A stretch of DNA of 64,000 bases from a phage (GCA_018509705.1 GCA_018509705.1_3630.1); one strand, 5' to 3'; positions 5,337 through 63,270 are shown, counted from the first letter of the stretch. Notes: generated by a model not told the origin, from the letters alone. Made by a program: numbers and translations.

Positions 5337-5890
5337 ATGATCGGGCGGCTCGCCACCTGATCCACATATTTAAAAAATCTGTCATTATCGTTTCTTGAGC
5401 TGTGGCTTTCCTCCGTGTACCGATAAGGAAAACCTCTTAACCAACTGTTGAAGATGGAAGAGATGGATATGGACAAAGCACTATTCTCCCCTGTCTGAAT
5501 AGCCATATCTGTTATAAGGCCGTCAAACAAGCCATTAGTTGTGACAGGCAGACCATTCTCCATAGCGGTAATGTACAACGTGGCACGACAACCGGAATAC
5601 TCCGTCTTCAGAAGATCACCCACATACTTAGGATCAAACCCGTTCAATGTCGCTACCACAGATCCGAAGTTGGTGGCATCTTTCTCAGACACAGCAGTTA
5701 ACGTTGCTGATCCACCTATCCCTATAAAATGTTGCCCCTCAATTACTACAACACCAGTGCCTGAGCACACCCTGACAGTTCCTGTCGGTAGCTCCAGCTT
5801 TGCAGCAATTAAGATCTCAACACCATCAAGCTCCAGCTTTTCAAGAAATAAATTATCTAATGGCGCTCTGATCATCTTAGAAATCCTCAA
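5324..5890 (-). CDS. hypothetical virion (tail) protein
   Basis: ORF track; operon context between fibre genes. Confidence 0.3.
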   Translation of the reverse strand: MRISKMIRAPLDNLFLEKLELDGVEILIAAKLELPTGTVRVCSGTGVVVIEGQHFIGIGGSATLTAVSEKDATNFGSVVATLNGFDPKYVGDLLKTEYSGCRATLYITAMENGLPVTTNGLFDGLITDMAIQTGENSALSISISSIFNSWLRGFPYRYTEESHSSRNDNDRFFKYVDQVASRPIIWEV

Positions 5891-6467
5891 AGAAGTTGAT
5901 AACTATATTATCACCTTTTTGCATAGCATCGACTTTTTGCTTAATTTTATAAATATCTCTGATATGAAACCTACCCTTCGGGGATTGAGTTATTATCTTC
6001 ATAGTGTCCCCTGCGGCAATAGGTTTTCTAAGTCTTGGAGATATGCTTATAACAGCAGACCCAACACCATCGCTACGCACTGGAGCTGTTACCACTTTCA
6101 ATTCATCATTGACAGATATTTTATCCCCAGCTCTGGCTATGTCTCTGTTTGGCTCCCACCCAACCGTCTTCAAAAAATCGTCGTTACCAGTAGGCCCAAG
6201 GGCGATTGGCTCATTAGCTGTAACTGAGTGACCGTAAGTTTTAATAAGAAAGATGTTTCCATCTTTATACACCTGATCAACAAAGCTCTTAAGCTCTAGC
6301 AACTGTGACTCGCTGATATTGGAAACCGTCAAAGTGCCTTTCCAGTTAGGTGTGGCATAGGTTACTTTTTGCGTTTTACCTGTAAACGGACTTTTAAACG
6401 TAACAATATCTGCCAGCAGCTCCAATCTAATATCTGGAAGGTATCTAGGCCTTTCCCATAAAAACAT
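5877..6467 (-). CDS. hypothetical virion (tail) protein
   Basis: ORF track; operon context. Confidence 0.3.
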   Translation of the reverse strand: MFLWERPRYLPDIRLELLADIVTFKSPFTGKTQKVTYATPNWKGTLTVSNISESQLLELKSFVDQVYKDGNIFLIKTYGHSVTANEPIALGPTGNDDFLKTVGWEPNRDIARAGDKISVNDELKVVTAPVRSDGVGSAVISISPRLRKPIAAGDTMKIITQSPKGRFHIRDIYKIKQKVDAMQKGDNIVINFFEDF

Positions 6468-58265: not shown

Positions 58266-59125
58266 AAGTTGTAAAACGGGACGGTAGAGAAGAGTTCTAT
58301 AACGGAATTAAGGTGATCAAGGCGGCAGAGTCCGCCTTACTTGAGTCTGGACATACTGAAGAAGAAGCTTACCGGATCGCCTGCGCGGTTAATGAAGTTG
58401 TTGCTAACAATCTACCAACCGACCAGTGCACGATCTCTGTAAAAAATATCCATATCCTTGTTGAAGACGCTCTTATGGATATGGGTTTAAAATGTGCAGC
58501 CAGAGAATACATCCAGTATAGGCAGACAAGAGATAATAACAGAGAGGCAGGTGGAAAACTGCTTGCAGATATTAGTGGCTTCTTGGATCGCACTTGTGAT
58601 GAATTTACAAAAGAAAACGCAAATAAGCCTACCAATCATGTACACACTCATCGTGACCTGCTTGCAGGCATTCTTAGCAAACACCTTGCATCAACACAGA
58701 TCCTGCCAGACCGTGTCTCTGAAGAGCACAATAAAGGCTTCATCCATGTGCATGATCTTGACTACTTGATCAGTCCGTTAACAAACTGTTGTTTGGTAAA
58801 TTATCCAGATATGCTGGAAAACGGATTCAACATTGGTAACGCTCATGTCAGTAAGCCGAAGTCAATAGGGGTTGCAACAACAATCCTTAGCCAAATCTCT
58901 AGTGCGGTAGCTAGTGCTCAATATGGTGGTCAGACTATGAGCCATATTGATCATTATCTGGCACAGTATGCTGAAGCAACCTATGAGAAGAACCTTAAAT
59001 TTTGCCAGGAACATTGGTTGCCAGATGCTGAGACTGTTGCAATGCAAATGACAGATAAAGACGTATTTGACAGCATGCAGACTTTGCTCTATCAAATCAA
59101 TACGTTAACTTCTGTCAACGGTTAA
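58262..59125 (+). CDS. nrdD: anaerobic ribonucleotide reductase, N-terminal segment (putative exon 1)
   Basis: ATP-cone-like KVVKRDGREEFYNGIKV; ORF ends at a stop entering a structured non-coding stretch; true 3' boundary unknown. Confidence 0.7.
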   Translation: MKVVKRDGREEFYNGIKVIKAAESALLESGHTEEEAYRIACAVNEVVANNLPTDQCTISVKNIHILVEDALMDMGLKCAAREYIQYRQTRDNNREAGGKLLADISGFLDRTCDEFTKENANKPTNHVHTHRDLLAGILSKHLASTQILPDRVSEEHNKGFIHVHDLDYLISPLTNCCLVNYPDMLENGFNIGNAHVSKPKSIGVATTILSQISSAVASAQYGGQTMSHIDHYLAQYAEATYEKNLKFCQEHWLPDAETVAMQMTDKDVFDSMQTLLYQINTLTSVNG

Positions 59126-59433
59126 CAAACTGGCCGTTTTAAAACTCTGCTAACCTCAGTATGAGGGGTCAGCTGATCGCTGGCTAACGGGGAACGCTAA
59201 GGCGAAAGCTATGCCAATCCCGTGACTAGCTTCACAAGGAGTGAGGCGGTTGTAACGACTAACCTTTTGGTGTAGGGATTATGGAAGATTCCGAAACGCA
59301 GAGGTCTGATTAAGAATCACACGGTGTGATTTCAGGCAAGAGATAGTCTGGCCTTGTGGAAACATAAGGGTGGGGACCGCAAACCCCTTTTATCACATTA
59401 AGTTTAGGTCTGGACACCTCAGTATTTGGTAGA
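59126..59433 (+). mobile_element. intervening sequence 1 in nrdD (putative self-splicing intron, no ORF)
   Basis: About 300 nt without an ORF, locally GC-richer with many complementary segments, between two nrdD-like segments. Confidence 0.45.
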
Positions 59434-59688
59434 ATGATTACCAAAAACTACTTGAAAGTCCACAAAATGGGTCTTGGTGAAGAACGTATCACACCTGTGT
59501 TCCCTAAAGTGCTGTTCTTCCTAGAAGAGGGTGTCAACATGAACCCTGGAGATCCTAACTATGATTTGAAACGATTAGCTTTGGAATGCTCTGCAGAGCG
59601 GATTTATCCTGACTTTGTTTCTGTTCCACTAAATCGTAAAGTGACAGGATCGACAGATGGCAAAGTAACGAGCATGGGTAAACTATAA
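59434..59688 (+). CDS. nrdD: anaerobic ribonucleotide reductase, middle segment (putative exon 2; boundaries approximate)
   Basis: 84-aa ORF between the two intervening sequences; assignment by context. Confidence 0.45.
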   Translation: MITKNYLKVHKMGLGEERITPVFPKVLFFLEEGVNMNPGDPNYDLKRLALECSAERIYPDFVSVPLNRKVTGSTDGKVTSMGKL

Positions 59689-60411
59689 CTGCTCATGTAA
59701 AATCTATCTAAACGGGGAAACTCCAGAACGGACAATCCCGTGCTAAACGTAACAGAACTCCTGACCAAGAGGAGTCCTGAAATGAGAAAACAAATTCGTG
59801 ATTTTGAAGGTTATGAAATTGACGAGATGGGCAATGTTTATTGCACCCGCTACGAAAATGAAAGAATTATTCATTCGTGGGAAGAGATAAACACAGGTTA
59901 CCGTCTTGTTAGGATACGCAAGAACAAAAAGACTGTTTGCCTAAGGGTTCACAGACTTGTTGCTGAATCGTTCTTACCAAATCCAGACAATTTACCCTAT
60001 GTTAAGCACAAAGGGGACAACAGGAAAGATAACAGTGTATACAACCTTGAGTGGGGAGCTTGCCCAGACAATACGCAAGAAGGATACAACAACAACTGTT
60101 ATGCTTTTTACACAAAATGCCACGGTGTGAAAGCCACCAACAAATTAACTGGTGAGGTTTTCCACTTTAAAAGTCTGAGATGTTGTGCTGATGTTTTAGG
60201 AGTGGATAGAAAAAGAATATCTGCTATCCTGAAACGTGGTGCGCCTAATAACTATGATTACGAGTTCTGTTACGAAATGCCTAACGACTAACCGTGATGA
60301 ATGTAGCGGTGTAGGGTGTAAGCCGATGACACTCGAAATGGTAGACACACTAAGTGTGAAGATATAGTCTGATCTGCATGGGAACATGCAGCAGCACGTA
60401 AAGGTGCGGGG
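59689..60411 (+). mobile_element. intervening sequence 2 in nrdD (putative intron) carrying an HNH endonuclease ORF
   Basis: Contains ORF 59740-60291 plus a structured 3' tail; the nrdD frame resumes downstream. Confidence 0.45.
59740..60291 (+). CDS. intron-encoded HNH homing endonuclease
   Basis: HNH_3-like core CLRVHRLVAESFLPNP...NLEWGAC. Confidence 0.55.
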   Translation: MLNVTELLTKRSPEMRKQIRDFEGYEIDEMGNVYCTRYENERIIHSWEEINTGYRLVRIRKNKKTVCLRVHRLVAESFLPNPDNLPYVKHKGDNRKDNSVYNLEWGACPDNTQEGYNNNCYAFYTKCHGVKATNKLTGEVFHFKSLRCCADVLGVDRKRISAILKRGAPNNYDYEFCYEMPND

Positions 60412-61404
60412 GTGGACTTGCGAACCACCCTGAACATAATGTGTAGAAGTTTCTTATCGAAATATAGCGACCCTGTAACAGGCGAGGAGAAATACCTTGG
60501 CAGATTTAACTTAGGCGTTGTTAGCCTTAACCTGCCAATGATTGCGGCAAAAGCTAAAACGGAAGGTGTTGATTTCTTTGCAGTTCTTGACGAATACCTG
60601 GATCTTGCATACGAGGCTCACCTTGTAAGGGTTAACCGTCTAAAAGGAACAAAGGCAGGGCAGAACCCTATCATGTGGTGTGAAGGCGCTCTTGCTCGCC
60701 TGGATCCTGAAGAGAGTATTGATAAACTCTTCTATGACGGGTACGCTTCCATCAGTATTGGGTATATTGGTGTGTATGAAACCTGTCAGATTTTGGGCAG
60801 GGAGGGTGACAAGGCTTTAGCTCTTGGAATACTACAGCACATGAGAGATGCTTGTGAGCGATACAAGAAGGAAAGTAGACTAGCGTTTAGCTTGTACGGC
60901 ACTCCTTCTGAGAGTCTATGCTATAAAGCTGCAACCTGTCTGGATCGTGAATATCCTGAAGTGTTGAAGCACGAGCATGAATATCTCACCAACAGTTTCC
61001 ATCAGCCAGTATGGATCAATAGCTCTCCTTTTGATAAGTGGGAGTATGAAGAAGGTTTTGCTATGATATCCTCTGGTGGCAACATCGGATACGTAGAGAC
61101 ACCAAATCTGAAAAACAACTTAGATGCTTTGGAAGCTCTTGTTGATTTCGGATATAAACACATTATGTATTTTGGTATCAACCAGCCTGTGGATAAATGT
61201 CTTAAGTGTGGTTTCTCTGGTGAGTTCAGTGCAACAGCTAAAGGGTTCTGCTGCCCTGCGTGCGGATGCCACGATGAACAATATATCTCAGTGATCCGAA
61301 GAGTGTCTGGATACCTTTCCAGTCCTAACTCCCGTCCTTACAATAAAGGTAAGCAAGCGGAAGTTATAGAACGGGTTAAGCACTACGGAAGTTGTGGTTG
61401 CTGA
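60412..61404 (+). CDS. nrdD: anaerobic ribonucleotide reductase, C-terminal segment (putative exon 3; track start is not the true boundary)
   Basis: CRSFL and GRFNLGVVSLNLPMIA, C-terminal Cys cluster CLKCG...CPACGC and glycyl-radical-like RRVSGYLS. Confidence 0.7.
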   Translation: MDLRTTLNIMCRSFLSKYSDPVTGEEKYLGRFNLGVVSLNLPMIAAKAKTEGVDFFAVLDEYLDLAYEAHLVRVNRLKGTKAGQNPIMWCEGALARLDPEESIDKLFYDGYASISIGYIGVYETCQILGREGDKALALGILQHMRDACERYKKESRLAFSLYGTPSESLCYKAATCLDREYPEVLKHEHEYLTNSFHQPVWINSSPFDKWEYEEGFAMISSGGNIGYVETPNLKNNLDALEALVDFGYKHIMYFGINQPVDKCLKCGFSGEFSATAKGFCCPACGCHDEQYISVIRRVSGYLSSPNSRPYNKGKQAEVIERVKHYGSCGC

Positions 61405-61470
61405 TACTTGACAAAAGCCACAAGGATGTGGCACCCTTAGTTCAAAGACGAGAACTAAGAGGATTCAGCA

Positions 61471-62631
61471 GTGAGAAAACTTACAACCGAAGATTTTATA
61501 GAGGGGGCGAAAGCAGTTCATGGTGATAAATATGATTATTCCAAAGTCAAATATGTGGGTGCACACACCAAGATTGTAATTATATGCCCTGAGCATGGAG
61601 AATTTAAGAAAACTCTTGGAGATCACCTCCGTAAAAAACAGGGTTGCCCAAAATGTCAGATTGAAGCAGAAAGAGCGGCTTCTGCTGAAAAATTTAAAGC
61701 GGAGGCCGAGGCTAAGTATAATTATAAATATGATTACTCTAAGGTAGAGTATGTAAATGCTAAAACTAAAGTTGTGATTGTTTGTCCTGTTCACGGCGAG
61801 TTTGAGCAAAAGCCTGATAACCATCTCCGCGAGGGGGGTTGCCGTAAGTGTGGAGGAACTGAGAGAAAGACTACTGAAGAGTGGATCGCTGAGGCAAAAG
61901 CGCTTCATGGCGATAAGTATGATTACTCTCTTGTAAATTATAAAACCGGTAATGATAAAGTGGAGATAATCTGTAATACATGTGGTGCTCACTTCCCACA
62001 AAGACCTCATGACCATGCACCAAGTGGAAAAGGTTGCCCCGAGTGCGGGAAGAAGAAGGTGGCCGAGGTTAGTAGGAAGACGCAGAGAAAGAAAGCATCT
62101 GAGGTAGCTAAAAGGTTTGAGGCAAGAGCCAGAGCTATCCATAAAGATAAATACGATTATTCCAGGGTGGAATATGTTAATAGGGAGACAGAGGTCACTA
62201 TCATCTGTCCGATTCACGGGGAGTTCACACAAAAACCGTTTGTCCACATCAACCAAAAAGCTGGCTGTCAAAAATGTGCTAAAGTCGGCTTCTTATCTCA
62301 TGAACATGGTAGCCTTTATATCATGGTTGACGATCTGGAAGTACCAACTATGATGAAAATTGGTGTGAGTGTCCGGGTAGATGAACGAAGAAAAGATGTG
62401 TTAAAAAGAGCTAAAAAAGCTGGTGCTAGATTCTCTGATCTACATGTTATAAAAACTTGGGAAGGAACAACAGACGACATGCAAACTTTAGAAAAAGCTA
62501 TGCACCAAGCCTTGAGCCAATACAAAATCAACTTCACAGAGAAGTTTGATGGCTGTCGAGAGTTCTTCTACTACAGACCGGAGGTGTTCAGCATAGTGGA
62601 AGCAGCGTATAAAGAGATCTGCGGTAAATGA
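61471..62631 (+). CDS. repeat protein: four tandem Cys/His zinc-ribbon-like repeats plus C-terminal GIY-YIG-like (T5orf172-type) domain; putative free-standing homing endonuclease
   Basis: Four repeats of about 45 aa (GDKYDYS.V.Y...V.I.CP.HGEF...P..H...GC.KC), visible at DNA level; C-terminal SLYIMVDD...MMKIGVS...RRKDVLKR. Confidence 0.4.
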   Translation: MRKLTTEDFIEGAKAVHGDKYDYSKVKYVGAHTKIVIICPEHGEFKKTLGDHLRKKQGCPKCQIEAERAASAEKFKAEAEAKYNYKYDYSKVEYVNAKTKVVIVCPVHGEFEQKPDNHLREGGCRKCGGTERKTTEEWIAEAKALHGDKYDYSLVNYKTGNDKVEIICNTCGAHFPQRPHDHAPSGKGCPECGKKKVAEVSRKTQRKKASEVAKRFEARARAIHKDKYDYSRVEYVNRETEVTIICPIHGEFTQKPFVHINQKAGCQKCAKVGFLSHEHGSLYIMVDDLEVPTMMKIGVSVRVDERRKDVLKRAKKAGARFSDLHVIKTWEGTTDDMQTLEKAMHQALSQYKINFTEKFDGCREFFYYRPEVFSIVEAAYKEICGK

Positions 62632-62683
62632 TCGTAGAAAGATACACACATCTTAAACATGCTATAAACTAAGGAGGTACAGT

Positions 62684-62800
62684 ATGTCTAAAGGTATTTC
62701 TAAAATTTGCAAGTGTGGTTGTCGTTGCAATCTTCGTTGGTGCAAGGCACTAGATGATTTTATTTGGCATTGCCCTAAATGTGATACGGAGTATCTATGA
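62684..62800 (+). CDS. small Cys-rich zinc-ribbon protein (38 aa)
   Basis: MSKGISKICKCGCRCNLRWCKALDDFIWHCPKCDTEYL; AAGGAGG RBS; ATGA overlap with nrdG. Confidence 0.3.
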   Translation: MSKGISKICKCGCRCNLRWCKALDDFIWHCPKCDTEYL

Positions 62801-63270
62801 ACATTGTCGGATACACAGAAATATCTTACACAGAAGGGCCAGGTATTAGAACTGCCTTGTGGGTATCTGGGTGCCCACACGCTTGCCCTGGTTGCTTTAA
62901 TCAGGCATTTTGGTCAAAAGATAAGGGGAGGGAGTTCACTGAAGAAGATTTGCAAAAAATCTTGTCAGATTTAGATAACCCGTCTGTGTGCGGTATCTCT
63001 CTGCTGGGTGGAGAACCCTTAGCATACTATAATGAGCCAGATATTATTAGCCTGATGGAGAAAATTAAGGAAAAATTTGGTGACAAGAAAACTATTCTTG
63101 TATATACTGGGTTCACATTTAACCATATCTCTAGTGATGTTCTTAAACTGGCTGATATCATCATTGACGGTAAGTATGTAAAAGATTTACCAACCAAGAA
63201 ACCGTTCCGAGGCAGTGATAATCAAAGAATGTTTAAAAAAGTATCAGGCGGTTGGGTTCAGGTAGACTAG
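62797..63270 (+). CDS. nrdG: anaerobic ribonucleotide reductase activating protein (radical SAM)
   Basis: GCPHACPGCFN radical-SAM Cys motif near the N-terminus; 157 aa. Confidence 0.8.
   Translation: MNIVGYTEISYTEGPGIRTALWVSGCPHACPGCFNQAFWSKDKGREFTEEDLQKILSDLDNPSVCGISLLGGEPLAYYNEPDIISLMEKIKEKFGDKKTILVYTGFTFNHISSDVLKLADIIIDGKYVKDLPTKKPFRGSDNQRMFKKVSGGWVQVD

Follow-up and report, generated by a model that had tools for sequence, protein, structure and literature searches.

Introduction

Free-standing homing endonuclease genes (HEGs) that encode a T5orf172 nuclease together with repeated zinc fingers of the CapR, DUF723 and DUF4379 types were described by Barth, Dunham and Seed in 2023 (PMC10448857). 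Fingers of these types, often several to a protein like "beads on a string", were borne by 200 of the 229 T5orf172 HEGs surveyed, ribonucleotide reductase genes were found in 33% of the T5orf172 HEG neighbourhoods, and repeat-mediated domain shuffling was reported (PMC10448857). The same authors pointed out that bioinformatics alone cannot say whether a given nuclease homes, and that domestication stays possible (PMC10448857). For the T5orf172 protein Odn (ICP1 Gp88), DNA cleavage has been shown, with the use of a catalytic Glu mutant (PMC8263062), and for CapR of PLE satellites, sequence-specific DNA binding was lost when its four Cys residues were mutated (PMC8096241). In the literature that we searched, we found no demonstration of homing for any T5orf172 HEG, and nothing relevant after 2023. 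SegH and MobC are endonucleases located at nrdD-nrdG of T4-like phages. Seg and mob endonucleases of these phages are known to target the nrdD/nrdG region (PMC2988022), and Hef of phage U5 belongs to a Vsr-like (EDxHD) nuclease family (PMC3239194).

In this study, we analysed a gene located between nrdD and nrdG in a 64,000-nucleotide stretch of phage DNA (GCA_018509705.1; hereafter the window). An initial annotation, made from the nucleotide sequence, had read it as a free-standing homing endonuclease gene whose product carries a repeat array. The results described below led us to conclude that the gene is probably a free-standing HEG of the T5orf172 branch of the GIY-YIG superfamily, and that it is a further member of the published family, of which near-identical copies have already been annotated.

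Results

Gene and Genomic Setting

The source phage of the window is a Vequintavirus (an rV5-like coliphage); 332 phage records matched the surrounding 8-kb region, the best match being vB_EcoM_SophiaRose (97.5%). The ORF given in the initial annotation coincided exactly with an entry in the list of plus-strand ORFs (Table 1), and an identical gene model is annotated in the SophiaRose record. The ribosome-binding site (RBS), AAGAGGA, is located at 61457-61463, 7 nt 5' of the GTG codon. The position between nrdD and nrdG also held true, as the ORF lies 3' of the last nrdD exon (end 61404) and 5' of nrdG (62797..63270), the former neighbour being identified by its NRDD and Gly_radical domains and the latter by its radical SAM domain. 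The gene is free-standing, has its own RBS and is flanked by nrdD and nrdG, which are essential genes in the sense of Barth et al. No further paralogs of the gene were found in the window. In SophiaRose and O157 typing phage 14, annotated proteins show 96.9% and 96.4% identity, respectively, to the window protein.

The neighbouring nrdD holds two group I introns, at 59122-59378 (257 nt, ORF-less) and about 59680-60449 (~770 nt), whose boundaries were set by aligning the region with nrdD of phage Murica, which has no introns. The second intron encodes a 183-aa ORF (59740..60291) with sub-threshold matches to HNH_3 and to I-HmuI NUMOD-like models. The hits to the Rfam model RF00028 scored 29.2 and 35.3 bits, both under the gathering score of 50. 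Only the first intron is present in SophiaRose and bov10K2.

Table 1. Features in and around the nrdD-nrdG interval of the window; positions are counted from the first nucleotide of the window.
Feature	Coordinates	Strand	Remarks
Hairpin GCCACA-AGGA-TGTGGC	61417..61432	+	directly 3' of the nrdD stop codon
Whole mobile cassette (leader, ORF, 3' tail)	61434..62671	+	from blastn against bov10K2 and from the junctions
Leader hairpin, 10-bp stem	61434..61462	+	3' arm pairs with the RBS at 61457-61463
ORF of the probable HEG	61471..62631	+	386 aa, GTG start, TGA stop; from the ORF list
Zn-finger repeat 1	61480..61659	+	aa 4-63; predicted ligands C39, H42, C59, C62
Zn-finger repeat 2	61678..61857	+	aa 70-129; predicted ligands C105, H108, C124, C127
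Zn-finger repeat 3	61867..62046	+	aa 133-192; predicted ligands all Cys (C168, C171, C189, C192)
Zn-finger repeat 4	62101..62280	+	aa 211-270; predicted ligands C246, H249, C266, C269
T5orf172/MUG113 nuclease domain	62296..62628	+	aa 276-386, GIY-YIG fold
Recombinant 3' segment	62587..62713	+	last 14 codons of the ORF, downstream spacer and first ~30 nt of the small ORF
Small Cys-rich ORF	62684..62800	+	38 aa, MSKGISKICKCGCRCNLRWCKALDDFIWHCPKCDTEYL; overlaps the nrdG start codon (ATGA)

Nuclease Domain

The T5orf172/GIY-YIG-like segment that had been noticed at the C-terminus was recovered by two Pfam models of the GIY-YIG clan above their cutoffs, T5orf172 (PF10544; 27.1 bits, cutoff 20, aa 282-371) and MUG113 (PF13455; 29.3 bits, cutoff 22.3, aa 296-371). 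Profile searching and structure prediction, the checks suggested with the initial annotation, assigned the repeats to DUF723/DUF4379 and the C-terminus to T5orf172 with a GIY-YIG fold. PF01541 was absent from the Pfam hits of the protein at E ≤ 1, DUF559 (Vsr-like) was likewise absent from them, and no specific model was found in NCBIfam. In PHROGs, the protein matched phrog_681, "endonuclease", at 3.7e-80. The arrangement had at first not been recognised as a described family. This part of the annotation is not supported: the arrangement is already known, because the architecture is described by Barth et al. (PMC10448857) and the SophiaRose protein, 97% identical, is entered in GenBank as a "putative GIY-YIG nuclease family protein", and the match to PHROG 681 is in line with this.

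An AlphaFold2 model of the protein, built from a 19-sequence alignment, had a mean pLDDT of 82.7 and a pTM of 0.39, a low value that is expected because the finger units are independent beads on a string; the pLDDT of the C-terminal domain was 87-95. This domain showed a beta-beta-alpha-beta-alpha topology and the alpha/beta fold of GIY-YIG domains. The figures listed for its fold were 6.7 for At-HIGLE, 5.5 for the I-TevI catalytic domain, 4.8 for PD-T4-3, 4.8 for the AtGRXS16 N-domain, 4.4 for Eco29kI, 4.2 for T4 EndoII and 3.7 for UvrC. A search of the PDB by sequence with the family profile returned chance hits only (E ≥ 0.11).

The conserved residues of the nuclease domain are Y282 and, (near-)invariant across the alignment of relatives, K296, G298, R306, E341, H345, E364, F366, Y367 and Y368. 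The "GIY" motif reads LYI, with its Tyr kept as Y282, and the "YIG" motif reads KIG, with K296 in place of the Tyr; a Lys at this position is usual in the T5orf172 branch. In the AlphaFold2 model, R306 is part of the first helix, E341 belongs to the helix that follows strand 3, and the two residues may correspond to R27 and E75 of I-TevI. Since an hhalign comparison of the family profile with I-TevI, for which an approximate sequence was used, was not significant (probability 0.3%), this putative equivalence is drawn from topology and conservation.

Zinc-Finger Repeats

The four tandem repeats reported in the initial annotation were confirmed by a self-comparison, which cut the protein into four units of 60 aa (Table 1). 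The units were 42-56% identical to one another in pairwise comparisons, and the repeats are real because their local alignment scores lay 19-30 standard deviations above those of shuffled controls (z = 19-30). Each copy follows the motif KYDYS..Y...V.I.CP.HGEF.Q.P..H...GC..C, with the YDYS anchors at aa 21, 87, 150 and 228, and the ligand sets follow the pattern C-x2-(H/C) ... C-x2-C, all 16 predicted Zn ligands being intact. The repeat length of about 45 aa proposed earlier fits the conserved core (~43 aa), but fits neither the full unit (57-60 aa) nor the spacing from unit to unit (66, 63 and 78 aa, i.e., 198, 189 and 234 bp). A DNA periodicity of about 135 bp, which had also been proposed, was rejected on the basis of this spacing, of the DNA identity of just 54-61% between units and of Tandem Repeats Finder, which detected no such DNA array.

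In Pfam, the repeats matched DUF723 in three stretches (3.1e-14, 53.1 bits; best stretch aa 26-62) and DUF4379 (1.4e-11, 44.9 bits; best stretch aa 161-194), both above the cutoff, and the latter family is described there as a "probable treble clef zinc finger". The CapR model remained sub-threshold in this protein (15.5 bits vs. a threshold of 24.2). In the AlphaFold2 model, each repeat starts with a helix, continues into a beta-hairpin and ends in a short helix, and a model of repeat 1 alone had a pLDDT of 87.4. The repeats are predicted to bind zinc and DNA.

A Foldseek search of the PDB with the whole beads-on-a-string model was uninformative, except for a DUF4379 mitoribosome factor (E 9.4e-4). 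Among solved structures, the repeat resembles only mitoribosome assembly factors of Trypanosoma brucei (PDB 6yxx_E2 and 6sga_Fd), one of which carries the label of a DUF4379 domain protein. This likeness hints that the repeat fold is a general nucleic-acid-binding module.

The protein belongs to a very large family. Homologs were detected in 813 phage records by tblastn, and at least 7980 matches at E ≤ 1e-10 were found in a metagenomic protein collection. A truncated variant of 327 aa (P0002) occurs in public data. The top homologs have 4-8 finger units each, so that the four repeats of the window protein lie at the low end of the range. Variability among 605 units was concentrated in two loops, the rest of the scaffold being rigid, and the consensus of the unit was ttEeFI.kAk.vHGDKYDYSKVeYvn..TKVcIICPeHGEFwQ.P..HL.G.GCpkC. 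Long arrays of this unit (4-8 units detected by regular expression, 450-670 aa) were seen in the metagenomic proteins P0003-P0120, most of which have no recognised Pfam nuclease domain and some of which have a DUF559/Vsr-like one. Arrays homologous to the fingers are fused to DUF559/Vsr-like nucleases in the metagenomic proteins P0010 and P0093.

Cassette and Insertion Site

A blastn comparison of the window with phage bov10K2, which lacks the gene, showed that homology stops at 61433 and is picked up again at 62672, and therefore that a 1238-bp cassette stands in place of 22 bp (TATTATTGACACACAGTGAGCT) of the 63-bp nrdD-nrdG spacer, which is otherwise conserved. The empty-site sequence was absent from the window. 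Comparison of the junction sequences across 12 phages showed that the hairpin behind nrdD, which delimits the insertion site on its left, is kept in phages with and without the gene, and the right edge of the cassette lies directly 5' of the RBS of the small ORF.

This small ORF is a neighbour located outside the cassette and is present in all Vequintaviruses compared; it had no match in Pfam. Its 5' end varies with the allele of the gene that lies upstream.

The RNA fold of the leader region (61405-61500) had a minimum free energy of -25.2 kcal/mol (z = -4.24), and the leader hairpin, by its pairing with the RBS, may control translation of the gene. Such an arrangement recalls how translation of T4 endonuclease genes is controlled. 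SophiaRose has an identical hairpin, but the leaders of the JEP1, navn and Mangalyan alleles lack it, i.e., it is not conserved among alleles.

Distribution and Allelic Variation

A 281-bp probe spanning the empty site matched 120 phage records, and in 92 of them the site was uninterrupted. At a protein identity above 95%, the allele of the window was found in only two records, SophiaRose and O157 typing phage 14. The same slot holds three other alleles, in navn, JEP1 and Mangalyan, which have a homologous nuclease domain and shuffled fingers: with the finger types denoted by letters, the array is A-A-A'-A in the window, A-A-B in navn, A'-B-A in JEP1 and A-A'-B-A in Mangalyan. The B finger of the navn allele passes the Pfam threshold for CapR (39.5 bits). 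The proteins of these three alleles are 45-52% identical overall to that of the window, and at the DNA level the 3' part of the gene, which encodes the nuclease, together with the downstream spacer (62272-62800) is ~78-81% identical to them.

Over its first 1110 nt, the gene was 99.5-99.8% identical in the three phages compared (that of the window, SophiaRose and typing phage 14), whereas the adjacent 900 bp of nrdD were 95-97% identical, a pattern that would fit a recent move of the gene between backgrounds. The recombinant 3' segment (Table 1) is of the JEP1/navn type, unlike that of SophiaRose and typing phage 14, and the last 14 residues of the window protein are identical to those of JEP1. 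When a co-conversion tract was sought in 12 phages within the final 330 bp of nrdD, mosaic haplotype patches were observed that were unlinked to the presence or absence of the gene.

Among the alleles, only that of navn comes with a replaced 3' end of nrdD, which may be flanking DNA brought in with the element. The replacement, at navn ~5880-5920 (window ~61380-61404), covers the last ~25 nt of nrdD and the hairpin behind it, alongside the gene itself, and the C-terminus of NrdD is altered in this phage.

In the public records, about 26 MG0656xx entries named as "Campylobacter phage" (A13b, A135, C2, D1 and others) are 95-97% identical to the Vequintavirus region. These records, labelled as Campylobacter jejuni phages, bear the navn-type allele, and their host labels look doubtful.

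Discussion

Domain, fold and comparative evidence together support the proposal that the gene is a free-standing HEG with a repeat array, and from them we infer its nuclease activity, its target site and homing itself. Base-pair-resolved presence and absence, the turnover of alleles, the shuffling within the slot and a conservation of the gene above that of its flanks all speak for this reading. In the mechanism that we propose, the four N-terminal zinc-finger units would act as beads on a string and jointly bind a long DNA site, and the C-terminal T5orf172 domain would cut near the bound site. During co-infection with a Vequintavirus that lacks the gene, the enzyme would cut the empty nrdD-nrdG region, and its target would most likely coincide with or lie close to the 22-bp spacer displaced by the cassette. 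Repair by recombination with the HEG-carrying genome would then transfer the 1.2-kb cassette, at times together with flanking DNA, to the recipient.

Three other explanations were considered, all of which match the presence and absence of the gene, its intact residues and its dispensability less well than homing does. It is quite improbable that the gene encodes a domesticated or weaponised nuclease, in which the array would aim the T5orf172 domain at a competitor (a co-infecting phage or a satellite) in the manner of Odn, with marker exclusion or anti-satellite defence, rather than gene copying, as the outcome selected for. A precedent exists in Odn, whose T5orf172 nuclease has been redirected to a satellite origin, and related cases in coliphages have been proposed (PMC8263062, PMC10448857); domestication is, according to the authors of the survey, not excludable from sequence alone (PMC10448857), and the absence of a clear co-conversion tract in the flanks also fits such a role. 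However, the known Odn-type proteins have RepA_N domains and not zinc-finger arrays, and the precise presence or absence beside essential genes, the alternative alleles and the conservation above that of the flanks make up a classic HEG pattern. The weapon and homing roles, moreover, are not mutually exclusive.

It is very unlikely that the gene is a decaying or inactive HEG remnant, kept only through its linkage to nrdD and nrdG. HEGs commonly degenerate after fixation, the allele is rare (2 of ~120 related records), and the truncated 327-aa variant P0002 is on record; yet the window allele has an unbroken ORF that keeps all 16 Zn ligands as well as the conserved nuclease residues, and the identity of 99.5-99.8% over three genomic backgrounds points to recent spread and not to decay. 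Most improbable of all is a sequence-specific DNA-binding regulator of nrdD/nrdG with a vestigial nuclease, resembling CapR or the autorepression by I-TevI: CapR, a relative of the fingers, is indeed a transcriptional repressor, and the gene lies between two co-transcribed nrd genes beside a conserved hairpin, but CapR has no nuclease domain, no other part of the window protein is as well conserved or as well modelled as its nuclease domain, and the gene is not a needed regulator, because 92 of 120 relatives do without it.

A further proposal concerns how the array might recognise its site. It is conceivable, if unlikely, that the finger units (~60 aa) make up a modular code for DNA recognition, with one short sub-site read by each unit. 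If so, the allelic series on a shared nuclease in this slot would represent re-targeting by unit shuffling, the variable positions in the two loops would be the determinants of specificity, and the slot would offer a ready system to decipher, and perhaps reprogram, a new class of array-guided GIY-YIG nucleases.

As found, the gene matters little in itself, since it adds a further annotated case to an HEG family that is already published. The analysis confirms the nrdD-nrdG spacer of rV5-like phages as a hot spot for selfish nucleases. The gene accounts for differences in gene content between near-identical therapeutic and typing coliphages, and a recombination boundary is marked by it. Together with the many empty-site relatives, the four shuffled alleles at this one site form a natural test bed for T5orf172 homing and for the reading of DNA by finger arrays.

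With regard to known systems, Hef of phage U5 is likewise a free-standing phage HEG adjoining nrd genes; it was rejected as the family of the window protein, since Hef is Vsr-like (PMC3239194) and the window protein has no such domain. What the window protein has in common with Vsr-like nucleases is confined to the zinc-finger array, as seen in the DUF559 fusions. The protein is also not a canonical GIY-YIG enzyme of the I-TevI/Seg type, and is predicted to act as such an enzyme does. Unlike T4 Seg proteins and I-TevI, it has no PF01541 match and carries K296 in place of the "YIG" Tyr, its nuclease domain is C-terminal and not N-terminal, and it has a zinc-finger array and no NUMOD or HTH modules. 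With CapR it shares the same kind of zinc finger, whereas CapR is a transcriptional repressor with a single finger and no nuclease domain. With Odn it shares a T5orf172 catalytic domain with conserved Arg and Glu residues, whereas Odn is an anti-satellite weapon that has a RepA_N DNA-binding domain in place of the zinc-finger array. The closest likeness in architecture is to the HEGs of Barth et al., such as ICP1 gp165 and gp174, which have an N-terminal string of zinc fingers and a C-terminal T5orf172 nuclease. It differs in that the window fingers score as DUF723/DUF4379 with CapR sub-threshold, and the gene resides in a Vequintavirus coliphage and not, as the ICP1 genes do, in a Vibrio phage. 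As in the gp165/gp174 type, it is free-standing beside essential genes that include ribonucleotide reductase genes, its domains are shuffled, and its presence varies from phage to phage.
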